Below the pieces are notes generated by a model. It saw only the letters and a program-made list of their open reading frames with translations, had not been told where the DNA came from and did not search any database. Positions 4,901 through 9,831 of a stretch of DNA of 64,000 nucleotides are shown here, piece by piece. The stretch is from Minisyncoccota bacterium (GTDB lineage Bacteria; Patescibacteriota; Minisyncoccia; Phycocordibacterales; Phycocordibacteraceae): NCBI GenBank assembly GCA_036405415.1, contig DASWXP010000002.1:340803-404802 (forward strand), read 5' to 3'. Numbering within the stretch: the first letter of the stretch is position 1; each line of letters starts with the position of its first letter. The translations under genes and the position numbers were made by a program.

Positions 4901-6541
4901 CTAGTTCGCAGGCGTCGTAGTGCCTGTGGTTTGCGCCGTCATCGTCGCAGCGACTGCTGCGCGCGTAAGCGGACCAAAGTATCCCGTTGACGGAACACCA
5001 TGTGTTGCCTGCCACTGCTTGAGCGCGGCCTGAGTCATCGGGCCGAACCATCCAGTTGGTGCCGGGATCGCGAGAAGACCAGCGTCGATAAGCATCTGCT
5101 GGAGCGCGTTTACATCAGCGCCTGTCTTGCCGTACCAGAGGTCAACCGTGAAGTTGTAGGTCGAGGCACCAAGGACCTGGCCCTGGCCAGGCGTAACGCT
5201 ATTTACCTGACCCGTGACGCTAGCGTTAGCATTTGCGTTCGAGTTGGTGTTTACCGTGCGGCGACTGGAGCCGCTCCGGCCAGAACTGCCACCATTGTTA
5301 TCATCTTCTGGCTGAGCAATAACCGGAGCGATCGTCGCCCAGTCATGCTGTTCAGAGAGAGTCGTGTTTTCTGCAACGATACCATTGACTGTGATGATAG
5401 CCTTTGCAGGTTTCTCTGCTGACTCCCACTCGCCGAGCGTCCAGTACTCTTCAGTTCCGTACGTAAGGTTCTGCGTGATGAACGGGGTGCTGAACTGCGT
5501 CGTGTTCTGTGCAAGCAGTTCGTTTAGCTTCGCGAGATTACCCTCATTGACGGCAAGGGTGTTTCCACTCGCGTCCTGAAGTTCAACCGTGAGTTCAGTA
5601 AACGTGCTGATGTTCGACACATTGAAGCCAACATTGATACCTGTGTAGTCGGTACCTGCGTGAGTGTTGAAGTTCTCTGCATTCACAGCAGGGATGATGG
5701 ACTCCCACGCATGCTGTTCAGAAAGCGTCGTATTCTCTACCTCGATACCGTTAACGGTAATAACTGCGGTCGAAGGCTTTGCATAGGACTTCCACTCGCC
5801 GAGCGTCCAGTACTCTTCCGTTCCGTAGGTAAGGTTCTGCGTGATGAACGGGGTGCTGAGCTGAGCTGCACCATTGACGAGAAGTGGGTTGAGCTTAGCA
5901 GCTACACCCGTGTTAGTAACGATTTCATCGCCATTAGCGTCCCTGAGCTCGACCGTAACATCGTCAAGGTTTGCCATGTTCGTAACCCGGAATCCGACGT
6001 TGATGCCCTTGTAGTCAGTACCAGAATGGGTGTTGAAATTCTCAGCAGTTACACCAGGAACAATGCTTTCCCAGGTCGGCCAACTACCACCTTCGTTAAA
6101 GCTTGAGTTAGTGGTTACGAGATCGCCGTCAGCAGTACTTACGGTAATAGTAACGCTTACAGGTCGAGTATCGACACTCCATGCTGCAGGAGCAGGATTC
6201 CAATAGAGCGTGTCACCTGCCTCAGTAAAGGAACCTTCCTTTATAACGAATGGGGTCGTGAGCTGATTGGTGCCTGGTGAATTAATGATGCCAAGCACAC
6301 CAGCATTTGCTGTTTTAGTTACGCTTGAACCGTCTGCACGGTTCAAGGTTACAGTTACCGCTGTTGCGTTTGTAATATCGGTTGTACGGAAACCGACACT
6401 TATGCCCTTGTAGCTTCCATCGACGGTCACGAACTCCTCAGCATCCACCGCTGGAGCGGCATAGACGCTTACAGGAGCTATGGCTGTGAGAAGCGCGAAC
6501 GCAGAAACCATGCTCGCGAGCTTAGTAAAGGTATTAGTCAT
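4901..6541 (-). CDS. secreted repeat protein with C-terminal peptidoglycan-binding (PG_binding_1-like) domain
   Basis: Start taken at the internal ATG 6541 (MTNTFTKLASMVSAFALLTAIAPVSVYA, a signal peptide). Three ~124-aa repeats (NFNTH.GTDY.GINVGF ... STPFITQNLTYGTEEYWTLGEW). C-terminus GADVNALQQMLIDAGLL...GWFGPMTQAALKQWQ resembles a PG-binding domain. Confidence 0.65.
   Translation of the reverse strand: MTNTFTKLASMVSAFALLTAIAPVSVYAAPAVDAEEFVTVDGSYKGISVGFRTTDITNATAVTVTLNRADGSSVTKTANAGVLGIINSPGTNQLTTPFVIKEGSFTEAGDTLYWNPAPAAWSVDTRPVSVTITVSTADGDLVTTNSSFNEGGSWPTWESIVPGVTAENFNTHSGTDYKGINVGFRVTNMANLDDVTVELRDANGDEIVTNTGVAAKLNPLLVNGAAQLSTPFITQNLTYGTEEYWTLGEWKSYAKPSTAVITVNGIEVENTTLSEQHAWESIIPAVNAENFNTHAGTDYTGINVGFNVSNISTFTELTVELQDASGNTLAVNEGNLAKLNELLAQNTTQFSTPFITQNLTYGTEEYWTLGEWESAEKPAKAIITVNGIVAENTTLSEQHDWATIAPVIAQPEDDNNGGSSGRSGSSRRTVNTNSNANANASVTGQVNSVTPGQGQVLGASTYNFTVDLWYGKTGADVNALQQMLIDAGLLAIPAPTGWFGPMTQAALKQWQATHGVPSTGYFGPLTRAAVAATMTAQTTGTTTPAN
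5330..6075. repeat. two ~370-bp tandem DNA repeats inside CDS 4901..6541
   Basis: Near-identical stretches, e.g. 5417-5500 versus 5787-5870 (ctcgccgagcgtccagtactcttc.gttccgta.gtaaggttctgcgtgatgaacggggtgctga), with a 370-bp period. Confidence 0.7.
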
Positions 6542-6751
6542 AAGTTTGCCTAATAGAAGTAATCGCCCGTTATTACCCCAGGTATGCCACTGCAACCTGC
6601 CCCAGTAATACCTTCACCCTATTCTTCTCAACTCATTTGTCAATAAAAGTTTCTGTTGTGACATGATAAAAAATTCATGTTTTCTTTATGTCTATTCTGA
6701 TCACTTTCAGAGAACGATGCCGCCAGTTTGCGCATGCGGTACCATAGGTCT

Positions 6752-7846
6752 ATGAAATCCTTTAGCGCACTTCTACTTGGAGCACTTCTATTCCTTCCCT
6801 TCACAGGATTTGCTCAAGGAGTAGAAGAGCAGCGTCTCTTGAAGGCGCGTGTGCTCGAAGCCTCCCCTACCACCGAACGGGTCGTGGAAGGTACGAGCAT
6901 CGTGACCGAGACCCAGACCCTCACTATCGAGGTGCTCGAGGGCGAAGACCGGGGACGGACCGCTACCTTCGAGAACGATTTCACGCAGCTTGAGGAAGGC
7001 GACATATTCTACGTACGCCATACGGTCGGCGGATTCGATCTTGAGACCTGGGCGGTCTCAGACCCGTATCGCCTCGACGTACTCATGTGGGTGGGCCTCG
7101 CGTTCCTTGCACTAGTGTTCCTCTTCGGAGGACTCCAGGGCATCCGCGGACTCGCTTCGCTTGCCGGAAGCCTCGTGCTTATCTTCTACCTCCTCCTGCC
7201 CGGCATCTATAGCGGCGGGTCTCCAATTCTCATATCACTTGGCGTGGCAGGACTCATCATCATCGTGGGTTCCTACGTGACGCACGGCGTAAACAAGACC
7301 ACGACCGCAGCCATGCTCGGCATGCTCGCGACAATCCTCGTCACGGGCCTTGCGACCTATCTCGTTATCGGCATGGCCTCGCTCTCGGGATTCACTTCCG
7401 AGGAGAACGCGTACCTTAACTTCGCGACCAGCGGCACGCTCGACATGGTTGGCCTCCTGTTCGGCGGCATCATGATCGGTCTTCTCGGCGTCCTCTATGA
7501 CAGTGCGATTGGCCAGGCGGTCGCGGTAGAAGAGCTGTATACCGCGGGCACGAATTACACCCGCAAGCAGGTATATCTGCGCGCGCTTCGGATCGGGCGC
7601 GAGCATATCGGCGCCTTGGTTAACACGCTCGCTATCGCATACGTAGGTGCGTCGCTCCCGCTCCTGCTTCTCCTGAAGCAGTCGACGGCGAGTCCGCTCT
7701 ATCTTCTCAATAGCGAGATCTTCGCCACGGAGATCATCCGCATTCTCATGGGAAGCATCGGTGTGATACTCGCCGTGCCGATCACGACGCTCATCGCCAC
7801 ATCGCTCCTCAAGGGAACAAAGCCTTCTGGGATCCACGCGCATTAG
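6752..7846 (+). CDS. YibE/F-like multi-pass membrane protein
   Basis: ORF 6728..7846. Preferred start is ATG 6752 (MKSFSALLLGALLFLPFTGFAQG, a signal-like peptide) with aggt 8 nt upstream. Soluble N-domain followed by about 6 Gly-rich TM helices, as in the YibE/F family. Confidence 0.5.
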   Translation: MKSFSALLLGALLFLPFTGFAQGVEEQRLLKARVLEASPTTERVVEGTSIVTETQTLTIEVLEGEDRGRTATFENDFTQLEEGDIFYVRHTVGGFDLETWAVSDPYRLDVLMWVGLAFLALVFLFGGLQGIRGLASLAGSLVLIFYLLLPGIYSGGSPILISLGVAGLIIIVGSYVTHGVNKTTTAAMLGMLATILVTGLATYLVIGMASLSGFTSEENAYLNFATSGTLDMVGLLFGGIMIGLLGVLYDSAIGQAVAVEELYTAGTNYTRKQVYLRALRIGREHIGALVNTLAIAYVGASLPLLLLLKQSTASPLYLLNSEIFATEIIRILMGSIGVILAVPITTLIATSLLKGTKPSGIHAH

Positions 7847-7889
7847 CGCTTGACTCTATCCTCTGCTGGTATAGAGTGCTGGTATTACT

Positions 7890-7908
7890 AATGCAAATTA
7901 ATTGCATT
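7890..7908. promoter_or_regulatory. 19-bp AT-rich imperfect palindrome AATGCAAATTAATTGCATT (candidate Fur-family operator)
   Basis: 8 of 9 symmetric pairs. It sits 6 bp upstream of the CDF transporter ATG, in an operon that ends with a Fur-family regulator gene. Confidence 0.45.
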
Positions 7909-7913
7909 TACCC

Positions 7914-8564
7914 ATGTCACTTACCACGTTTGCTAAGAATCATCCGCTCGCGATATACGGACTCGTCTGGCTATTGAGTCTCTTCATCGTGTCGCTCGAG
8001 CTCGTGGGCTCGGGCGTCTCCGGGAGTCAGGCGCTCCTTGCGGACGTAGGACATGTCGCAAGTGATACCCTGCTCGCGCTCGTCCCGCTCGCAGCGCTCC
8101 TCTTCGTGCGCCTCGGATGGAACTACCGCAAAGTCGCGTTCGTGAGCAGCCTCGCCGCGGTAGCGATTCTCCTGTGGGTTGGCGTGCACGTAGGCGGCGA
8201 AGCATGGGAAGCGCTCATGGGAGAGGAGCATCACGACCATGAAGTTAATGGCGTATTCCTCTTCCTATTCTCAGGCGTAGCAGCGATCGCGAACCTGATC
8301 CAGCACCGCCTTCTCTCGCGCATCGATCCTGAGCATCATCATGGCGCGCACCAGGGCCTCCATTTCCATGTACTCATGGACCTCGTGAAGAACGTGGCGC
8401 TCCCGGTGCTCGGCATCCTGATCGCGCTCGAGTTCCTCCCTGACCACGCGGACCTCTGGGCAGCGCTTGTTATCGGGGTGCTTCTCATCATCCGCGCCCT
8501 CATGCTTCTATATACGACCCTCTTCCAGGAGAAGCGCCTGCATGCAGGTCATGACCACGCCTAG
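7914..8564 (+). CDS. cation diffusion facilitator (CDF) family transporter, short form lacking the C-terminal cytoplasmic domain
   Basis: Six TM helices and His-rich loops (EEHHDHE, EHHHGAHQGLHFH, HAGHDHA). ATG at 7914; the TTG at 7902 would overlap the palindrome. Confidence 0.6.
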   Translation: MSLTTFAKNHPLAIYGLVWLLSLFIVSLELVGSGVSGSQALLADVGHVASDTLLALVPLAALLFVRLGWNYRKVAFVSSLAAVAILLWVGVHVGGEAWEALMGEEHHDHEVNGVFLFLFSGVAAIANLIQHRLLSRIDPEHHHGAHQGLHFHVLMDLVKNVALPVLGILIALEFLPDHADLWAALVIGVLLIIRALMLLYTTLFQEKRLHAGHDHA

Positions 8565-8967
8565 CCACGAGCAGCTACTTCGCGATGCGGGACTGCGTGC
8601 CACGCCTGGGCGCATAGCCTTGCTCCACGCGCTCGCAAAGGAACCGAAGCCCGTACCGGTTGAGAAGCTCGCCAAGTCTCTCAAGGGGAAGCTCAACCAG
8701 GTGACCTTGTACCGAGCACTCGAGGCATTCGAGAACGCGAACATCGTGACCCGCGCAGGGCTCGGGCACGAGCACGCGCACTATGAACTTCTCCTTGACC
8801 GCCCGCATCACCACCATGCTGTATGCCGTGCCTGCGGACATGTCGAGGATATCGAGATCCCGCATTCACCTTCTCCCGAGAAGGATGCCGAACGACGCGC
8901 CAAGGGATTCGCTTCCATAGACCGCTATTCCCTTGAGTTCTTCGGGACCTGCCGCTCGTGCGCTTAG
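8542..8967 (+). CDS. Fur family transcriptional regulator (Zur/Fur/PerR-like)
   Basis: Winged-helix N-terminus (GLRATPGRIALLHAL), a C-terminal HHHAVCRACG...C..C metal site, and a His-rich patch. Overlaps the end of the CDF gene by about 23 nt (operonic). Confidence 0.75.
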   Translation: MQVMTTPSHEQLLRDAGLRATPGRIALLHALAKEPKPVPVEKLAKSLKGKLNQVTLYRALEAFENANIVTRAGLGHEHAHYELLLDRPHHHHAVCRACGHVEDIEIPHSPSPEKDAERRAKGFASIDRYSLEFFGTCRSCA

Positions 8968-9081
8968 CGCTATACACACAGGCAGTAGCAGCACCTGGAA
9001 GCGGCACTTGCGGTGCTAGAATCTAGGTACAAATATGAATCCTTCATTCGGGACGCGCAGTGCTGTCCCGGCAGCTCGCGT

Positions 9082-9750
9082 ATGAGGATACTTGTTGTCG
9101 AAGACGAGGCGCGTATCTCCCGCTTCCTCAAGGAATCGCTCGAAGCAGAGTTCTTCGCGGTCGATGTCGCTGAGGACGGCGAGCAAGGCTCGTACTTCGC
9201 GCGCACCAACGAGTATGATCTCGTCGTGCTCGATAACATGCTCCCGAAGAAGGACGGGTTGCAGGTATGCAAGGAAATCCGCGCGAGCGGCAAGACCATG
9301 CCGATACTCGTGGTGTCCGTGAAGACCGGAACGTTCGATAAGGTGGACCTACTCGACGCAGGTGCGGACGATTATCTCGCCAAGCCTTTCGTGCTTGAGG
9401 AGCTCCTCGCAAGAGTGCGCGCGCTCATGCGGCGACCTACCGTCATCGAGAGTGACGTGCTGCGGGTCGAGGACATCGAGCTCGACGCGAAGGCAGGAAC
9501 CGTTCGCCGCAGCGACCGCGACATCACACTCACGCGCAAGGAATTCATGCTCCTGCAGTACCTCATGCGGAACGAGGGGACGGTGCTTTCCCGCGGCATG
9601 ATACTTGAGCACGTATGGGATATGAGCGTGGACATCTTCTCCAACACCATTGAGTCCCACATCCTTTCCCTCCGCAAGAAGCTCGGGGACACGAAGGACG
9701 ACCGTATCATCCAGACCATCTCAGGACGCGGATACCGCATGGGCGGATAG
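9082..9750 (+). CDS. response regulator transcription factor, OmpR/PhoB family
   Basis: Receiver domain MRILVVEDE...DLVVLDNMLP (phospho-acceptor Asp)...LAKPF, then winged-helix TLTRKEFMLLQYLMRNEGTVLSR...GYRM. Confidence 0.85.
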   Translation: MRILVVEDEARISRFLKESLEAEFFAVDVAEDGEQGSYFARTNEYDLVVLDNMLPKKDGLQVCKEIRASGKTMPILVVSVKTGTFDKVDLLDAGADDYLAKPFVLEELLARVRALMRRPTVIESDVLRVEDIELDAKAGTVRRSDRDITLTRKEFMLLQYLMRNEGTVLSRGMILEHVWDMSVDIFSNTIESHILSLRKKLGDTKDDRIIQTISGRGYRMGG

Positions 9751-9831
9751 CCGCTATCTTTTCTTCATATTTTCGTTATCGCTCTCTGAGAGAGTGTGTG
9801 CGGACTGGTCATTACATACAGGGAGACTCTG

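Follow-up and report, generated by a model that had tools for sequence, protein, structure and literature searches.

How would a metal-loaded repressor of the Fur family come to control a cation diffusion facilitator (CDF), a transporter normally regarded as an efflux pump? The question is raised by a locus in 64,000 nucleotides of a Minisyncoccota genome (Patescibacteriota; contig DASWXP010000002.1, positions 340,803 to 404,802 of the forward strand), the whole of which is referred to here as the window. In this locus an AT-rich palindrome stands directly before two overlapping genes, the first encoding a short CDF and the second a Fur-family regulator. An earlier note on the window saw a paradox in this arrangement, as it reverses the usual circuit in which Zur represses uptake, and offered two ways out: a CDF that works as an importer or organellar transporter, or a Fur homolog that acts as an activator or apo-repressor. 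The paradox is real in so far as the same box fronts genes for ZIP and ZnuABC-like importers in related genomes and takes a repressing position before the CDF gene, but it is not unprecedented, since Fur-family sensors are known at the CDF genes zitB, XC2976 and zrf (PMC6103462). The reading favoured here, which is judged probable from the DNA and its relatives, is that a metal-loaded repressor acts at its own operator and that the CDF is made under metal scarcity.

The palindrome, AATGCAAATTAATTGCATT, has a 9-1-9 structure with one mismatched pair and is present as a single copy in the 64 kb, where the chance expectation from 100 shuffles is zero. It had been described as starting at 7880 and lying 6 nt before the transporter gene, but occupies 7890-7908, and the ATG of the CDF gene (7914) follows 5 nt after its end. 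Searches of the window with the exact pattern (up to 3 mismatches), with the half-site pattern and with a position weight matrix (PWM) yielded no further copy. The PWM, trained solely on sites from other loci, gave the window site 35.2 bits, compared with 3.7 bits for the runner-up in the 64 kb and a maximum of 13.5 bits in shuffled windows. The recurrence expected by the earlier note is therefore lacking in the window, but a regulon is seen in related genomes. These were represented by about 90 loci with their flanking DNA (designated by L numbers), of which 6 came from exact-protein look-ups, 74 from a metagenome scan and 13 from CDF relatives. In 324 kb of related loci, the core TGCAAAT-N-ATTTGCA was found at 52 sites when up to 2 mismatches were allowed, while shuffled sequences gave a mean of 1.0 and a maximum of 4. 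Nearly all of these sites lie within about 100 nt upstream of a Fur-like gene or its operon, regardless of which genes are its neighbors. Both sequence and position are kept in relatives whose regulator is 35-90% identical to that of the window, and the logo built from 53 sites reads T/A-TGCAA-ATNAT-TTGCA-A/T. Several loci carry tandem double boxes, and close relatives that seemingly lack the motif bear variants of the same geometry, such as AACGCAA-N5-TTGCGTT. The pairing of operator and regulator rests on this phylogenetic footprinting: because the motif keeps company with the Fur-like gene rather than with a response regulator, the Fur-like protein is the predicted binding partner. It is thus very probable, as had been proposed, that the palindrome serves as operator for the Fur-family protein whose gene lies in the operon behind it.

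The OmpR-type protein encoded downstream was also considered as the box-binding protein and was rejected, given that the box accompanies the Fur-like gene in dozens of loci with no response regulator nearby. The half-sites themselves vary by sub-clade, with TGCGAA...TTCGCA in L034, L050, L052, L053, L057 and L058, and CGCAA...TTGCG in L018:400-425 and L025:362-386, which may reflect co-evolution of the operator with the recognition helix. At L018:390-432, a perfect palindrome of about 43 bp, ccacaccgatttaacgcaa-cttga-ttgcgttaaatcggtgtgg, surrounds the box and is much longer than an operator requires.

It could also be argued that the palindrome is no protein operator, but a hairpin in the 5' leader of the mRNA that affects translation, or else a promoter element. 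In the window it does belong to the predicted leader, and the start codon 5 nt away lacks a Shine-Dalgarno sequence; the left half of the box also coincides with the -35 hexamer in the ZIP-type loci described below. The hairpin is weak, however (-5.2 kcal/mol, z-score -1.0), no RNA element upstream of the CDF gene was matched in Rfam at E-values up to 1, a spurious miRNA match aside, and in most loci, ZIP-type included, the box lies upstream of the transcription start and would not be transcribed at all. What is conserved is moreover the sequence, with dyad symmetry, including spacer positions that promoters do not need, and boxes in tandem. Either of these roles is consequently regarded as extremely improbable.

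The genes behind the box, obtained by clustering the neighboring open reading frames (ORFs) and checking cluster representatives against Pfam, are mainly those of metal importers. ZIP transporters (PF02535) are found in about 29 loci, mostly as Fur->ZIP or as a divergent ZIP<-box->Fur arrangement, and ZnuA/ZnuC/ZnuB-like ABC importer genes (PF01297, PF00005, PF00950) occur as ZnuA(BC)<-box->Fur or Fur->ZnuABC->YibEF. In the lineage of the window the CDF takes the place of the importers, and about 12 loci are of this CDF type. That the link between CDF and box is not a mere by-product of co-transcription with the regulator follows from three further arrangements: L085, where promoter, box and CDF gene stand together and the regulator, at a distance of 2 kb, has two boxes of its own in front; L082 (box-Fur-CDF); and L086 (box-CDF-Fur-YibEF). 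By this genomic context, the CDF is a member of the predicted box regulon. In a neighbor-joining tree, most of the CDF-linked regulators group in a single clade surrounded by ZIP-linked ones, and since those of L004 and L082 fall elsewhere, the CDF has been recruited at least twice.

The effect that an occupied box would have can be judged from its position relative to the promoters, for which three layouts are found. In most relatives, which include the ZIP-type loci, the -35 hexamer is provided by the left half-site, TTGCAA, with the -10 hexamer 16-17 nt further on and the ATG 6-8 nt past the -10 (for example at L026:395-450, L010:30-80, L046:1415-1470 and L062:2960-3010); such promoters would contain the operator and give leaderless mRNAs. 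In the window and in L001, L002, L004, L007, L024 and L085, the box is preceded by a promoter distinct from it, TTGACY-16/17-TAnnGT, of which both hexamers are kept and the spacer is variable. The window copy (TTGACT-16-TAGAGT, 7850-7877) is the single promoter-like match in 6500-9800 and lies some 40 bases upstream of the palindrome, which spans about +7 to +25 relative to the inferred transcription start. In L015, finally, a leaderless CDF promoter has the right half-site as its -35. As the box is downstream of the -10 or over the -35 in all three layouts, its occupation is predicted to repress, and this geometry argues against activation.

According to the mechanism proposed, a dimer of the metal-loaded regulator would bind the box and, as this is situated past the transcription start but ahead of the CDF start codon, would block transcription of both the CDF gene and the regulator gene. 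The regulator would in this way repress its own gene in a negative autoregulatory loop, and the operon would be off at metal plenty and on at scarcity, when the CDF would be made. The repressing geometry can be read from the DNA, while binding in the metal-loaded (holo) form and the identity of the metal are inferred. A repressor of ZIP and binding-protein-dependent ABC systems must bind at metal sufficiency, because such systems import metal; from the same box, identical candidate ligands and a repressing geometry it would therefore follow that the CDF, too, is made at metal scarcity.

The usual logic of an exporter gene would instead have the regulator act as an apo-repressor, or as an activator at high metal, with the CDF induced by excess and exporting the very metal that is sensed. 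There is precedent for both within the Fur family, since CgZur represses zrf at low zinc, and ScZur and XcZur activate CDF genes at high zinc (PMC6103462). The metal site of the window CDF and its nearest solved relatives, the ZnT antiporters, are also typical of exporters. This logic is nonetheless considered rather unlikely here: an identical palindrome fronts the ZIP and ZnuABC importers of sister lineages, whereas the exporter sites of Corynebacterium glutamicum and Xanthomonas campestris have different sequences (PMC6103462); the box is downstream of the -10 or over the -35 and not upstream of the -35 as at zitB; and the candidate ligands are the same in CDF-linked and ZIP-linked regulators.

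The regulator itself belongs to the Fur family (PF01475, 1.9e-17) and shares 100% identity with a protein that carries the annotation 'Fur family transcriptional regulator' in a metagenome-assembled genome of Candidatus Paceibacterota (622-kb contig). Its AlphaFold2 model (pLDDT, the predicted local distance difference test, 84) has the Fur order of secondary structure, and all top Foldseek matches of the model are Fur, PerR, Zur, Nur or Mur structures. Across 36 sequences, the invariant residues are E34, H76, H78, H80, E82, H89-92, C95, C98, H108, C137 and C140, with C95, C98, C137 and C140 forming the two CxxC motifs of a Cys4 structural zinc site. The H76-x-H78-x-H80 motif, located in the S1-S2 wing, is specific to the clade, and H108 is conserved as well. 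All candidate metal ligands are invariant between CDF-linked and ZIP-linked regulators, so there is no sign of altered allostery.

The earlier note had called for an assignment to Zur, Mur, Nur or PerR, but the ligands do not allow it to be placed in any of them. In sequence and fold searches of the PDB, Fur, PerR, Nur, Zur and Mur come out about equally distant: Nur (3eyy) is the best sequence match at 1.4e-13, the values for Nur, Vibrio cholerae Fur and PerR lie between 1e-13 and 2e-12, and ScZur (1e-10) and Mur (3e-7) are further off. The curated NCBIfam equivalog models for Fur, PerR and Irr all score far below cut-off for the window regulator. In Zur structures from S. coelicolor, M. tuberculosis and E. 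coli, the zinc-sensing site includes a Cys together with Asp, His and His. No fifth Cys is conserved in the present clade, and the window protein has the four CxxC cysteines only, although it does have, within HHHH, the two His that come next in a Zur-type site. At clade level, ZIP and ZnuABC-like operons, which may serve zinc uptake, stand behind the box, none of them in the 64-kb window. The nickel triad of Nur (H70/H72/H126) aligns to R71/G73/S130, R71 being invariant in the clade, so the Nur site is absent. Of the Fur/Mur sites, taking V. cholerae Fur as reference, site 2 (H33, E81, H88, H90 and E101) is represented by E82, H90, H92 and E105 with P37 in place of H33, and site 1 (H87, D89, E108, H125) by H89 and H91, with P112 for E108 and R128 for H125. 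The regulator belongs to a Patescibacteria-specific clade of Fur proteins and could be assigned to no named subfamily. The metal sensed is most likely zinc, which is the leading candidate because of the importer partners and the Zn-type site of the CDF. Since the ZnuA-like protein bears Glu at the position of a ligand His of Synechocystis ZnuA, manganese or iron is also a candidate, and manganese, iron or nickel is possible as the sensed metal.

A PerR-like regulator, repressing when metal-loaded and inactivated by peroxide, would let oxidative stress induce importers and exporter together, so that one signal would explain both. PerR-controlled metal efflux is known from Firmicutes, and PerR of Bacillus subtilis is among the three best PDB sequence matches. 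The PerR site (H37, D85, H91, H93, D104), however, aligns to P37, E82, H90, H92 and D103 and is not reproduced: the position of the His in the DNA-binding domain of PerR and Fur (H37/H33) is an invariant Pro, and D103 is either D or N in the clade. No gene for peroxide detoxification stands behind any box in the loci examined, and the Fur paralogs that do adjoin peroxiredoxin or flavodiiron-like genes (L073-L078) form a separate outgroup without the box. Control by peroxide is therefore seen as very unlikely. Those paralogs, 23-27% identical to the window regulator and found in L073, L074, L075, L077 and L078 beside genes assigned by eye as peroxiredoxin-like or flavodiiron-like, are probably true PerR-type regulators that stand apart from the clade of the window.

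If a metal-loaded repressor indeed keeps the operon silent at metal plenty, the function of the CDF under scarcity has to be explained. As the earlier note had recognized, the protein is short, consists of the transmembrane (TM) domain only and carries His-rich stretches. Its 216 residues match Cation_efflux PF01545 at 6e-14 (profile positions 6-194 of 198) and TIGR01297 at 1.7e-13; there is no C-terminal domain (CTD) and no further Pfam match, the protein ending about 13 residues after TM6. With 201-231 aa, all 58 homologs found are similarly short, and absence of the CTD is thus a trait of the entire family. The selectivity quartet in TM2 and TM5, which was to be inspected, consists of HVASD (H47, D51) and HVLMD (H152, D156), both invariant in alignment A2; by its sequence, this HxxxD + HxxxD quartet is of the Zn-type group. 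Among solved structures, the Zn/H+ antiporters ZnT3, ZnT4 and ZnT8 come nearest, with TM2 aligning to the motif of ZnT3 and ZnT4. The His-rich stretches are EEHHDHE, PEHHHGAHQGLHFH and a C-terminal HAGHDHA, and the conserved HHxHE of the TM3-TM4 loop would face outward if the canonical CDF topology, which is assumed, holds. The role ranked first is export in the normal direction, be it as a safety valve against metal shock, for the removal of a competing metal or for the supply of extracytoplasmic proteins; import is ranked second.

The second of these roles would make the CTD-lacking CDF a transporter for metal acquisition, working as an importer or reversed antiporter, that replaced the ZIP of an ancestral operon. 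Such a replacement agrees with a repressor logic that is identical for ZIP and CDF, with the HHxHE loop if it does face outward, and with the distribution of the two transporters, which never occur together beside the regulator in the loci examined (about 29 ZIP-type and 12 CDF-type). The best 120 ZIP orthologs listed (at least 69% identity) include contigs of ZIP-type loci but none of the CDF-type contigs, among them the 622-kb contig of the window, although this absence concerns the best 120 orthologs listed, with contigs matched by their length, and not whole genomes; the evidence that the CDF replaced the ZIP rather than joined it is weak to moderate. Import is, to our knowledge, not established for any bacterial member of the CDF family. 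In the literature, CDFs figure as cytoplasmic exporters (PMC8341793), and those lacking the CTD are numerous, with a function stated to be unclear (PMC6465983, PMC8341793). Uptake by the window CDF is thus an unlikely reading.

Several points weigh against repression by the metal-loaded form and expression under scarcity. The choice between holo- and apo-binding is drawn solely from the kind of genes that are co-regulated, and an efflux CDF made at scarcity would be harmful if it exported the sensed metal itself. The promoter, and with it the transcription start, is a consensus prediction. The 64-kb window contains no second box and no importer gene (by tblastn, neither ZIP, ZnuABC nor CooC-like genes were found in it), so that the regulon evidence comes from related genomes. 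Finally, at L081:3604-4654, on a 493-kb contig, a gene of the CsoR/RcnR family (PF02583) lies directly upstream of a 52%-identical CTD-lacking CDF. This relative stands outside the group of the window, and its pairing, usual for exporters, would mean that metal excess induces the gene and that the CDF family exports; it speaks for the usual exporter logic and equally against an importer.

Among known operators, there is a resemblance to the Nur box of Streptomyces coelicolor, tTGCaa-N5-ttGCAA (PMC2691836), the outer hexamers and spacing of which are like those of TTGCAA-ATNAT-TTGCAA. Histidines are also found in the DNA-binding domain of both Nur and the window regulator, in the S1-S2 wing. 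In contrast to the 6-5-6 Nur box, however, the inner positions are conserved here as well, giving 8-1-8, and the regulon comprises ZIP, ZnuABC-like and CDF genes and not nik and sodF. With the classical 7-1-7 Fur box the operator has 5 of 7 positions per half-site in common, and TGCAAAT-N-ATTTGCA can be described as a 7-1-7 variant. Small autoregulated sensors in an operon with a CDF and a palindromic operator are familiar from czrAB of Staphylococcus aureus and czrA/czcD of B. subtilis, where CzrA is of the ArsR/SmtB type and is released from DNA by metal. The regulator family is a different one here, and the Fur fold and the importer partners point to the opposite switch.

Closer in the type of regulator are S. 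coelicolor zitB, X. campestris XC2976 and C. glutamicum zrf, where a Fur-family metal sensor (ScZur, XcZur and CgZur) acts directly at a CDF promoter, as predicted for the window, and in these three species controls uptake genes too (PMC6103462). At zitB, activation proceeds from a box upstream of the -35, to which none of the three layouts described above corresponds, and in X. campestris and C. glutamicum the DNA sequence is a different one, whereas here the palindrome is identical and in a repressing position. The Zur-controlled CDFs are, moreover, not co-transcribed with their regulator, whereas here the CDF lies in the operon of a regulator that lacks the Zur-type sensory Cys. Induction of both importers and CDFs under deficiency is known from yeast, where Zap1 at zinc deficiency induces ZRC1, which protects against zinc shock, and ZRG17, which supplies the endoplasmic reticulum (PMC2535606). 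As Zap1 is a eukaryotic activator without homology to the regulator, and its CDFs are organellar, it is a precedent for the logic only. CDFs reduced, like that of the window, to the six-helix transmembrane domain with His-rich tails are widespread in bacteria according to Kolaj-Robin et al. (2015) as cited in PMC6465983, and no function or regulation is assigned to them in that account. The locus described here defines a regulatory context for this class.

We know of essentially no experimental study of metal homeostasis in Patescibacteria (also known as the candidate phyla radiation, CPR). Against this background, a clade-wide Fur-type regulon and its operator have been defined from sequence alone, and the CTD-lacking CDFs gain a first regulatory context, one that points the 'wrong' way for an exporter. 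Neither Fur-family control of a CDF nor induction of CDFs within a deficiency regulon, as by yeast Zap1, is new in itself. Were the CTD-lacking CDFs of Patescibacteria low-metal-induced acquisition transporters that replaced ZIP in a Zur-like, metal-repressed operon, a doubtful proposition on present grounds, bacteria would have their first CDF importer, and an orphan class would gain a function. Two uncharacterized families, YibE/F and a CooC/MinD-like ATPase with a C-x-H motif, are in addition linked to metal handling.

The layout of the window locus is given in Table 1. The Fur-family gene has an alternative start at ATG 8551, the NCBI call, which gives a protein of 138 aa. Its ORF overlaps the CDF stop codon (8562-8564), as the earlier note had observed, by 23 nt, or by 14 nt from ATG 8551.

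Table 1. Positions of the operon, its control elements and the adjoining genes in the 64,000-nt window
Feature	Position	Strand	Remarks
Operator palindrome AATGCAAATTAATTGCATT	7890..7908	.	core TGCAAATTAATTGCA at 7892-7906; extended match 7888-7910
Predicted sigma-70-type promoter, TTGACT-16 nt-TAGAGT	7850..7877	+	inferred transcription start ~7884
CDF transporter gene, 216 aa, without C-terminal domain	7914..8564	+	PF01545, TIGR01297
Fur-family metalloregulator gene, 141 aa	8542..8967	+	PF01475 FUR; translationally coupled to the CDF gene
YibE/F-like membrane protein gene	6728..7846	+	PF07907 at 2.3e-62; upstream of the CDF gene
OmpR-type response regulator gene	9082-9750		downstream of the Fur-family gene

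The YibE/F-like gene upstream of the CDF gene has relatives in about half of the related loci, often adjoining the Fur-like gene (among them L045, L051, L053, L055, L058, L061, L070 and L086). In several loci YibE/F is found within the box-controlled operon itself, as Fur->YibEF, Fur->ZnuABC->YibEF or CDF->Fur->YibEF. A box upstream of the window gene was not detected with the PWM, and a literature search for the function of YibE/F returned nothing relevant. The recurrent association suggests a role of YibE/F in metal transport.

A P-loop ATPase of the CooC/MinD type (PF01656) with a conserved C-x-H motif is encoded divergently from the regulator, usually across two tandem boxes, at L030:2042-2923 (minus strand), L085:4452-5306 (minus strand), L033, L035, L049, L053, L057 and L058. 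By analogy with the COG0523 GTPases of Zur regulons, of which it would be the counterpart, this protein may be a metallochaperone.

Further upstream in the window, the ORF at 4901-6595 (minus strand) encodes a protein of 564 aa with a hydrophobic N-terminal stretch, possibly a signal peptide, three internal repeats of about 110 aa each (ENFNTH.GTDY.GINVGF...) and a C-terminal peptidoglycan-binding domain (PF01471).

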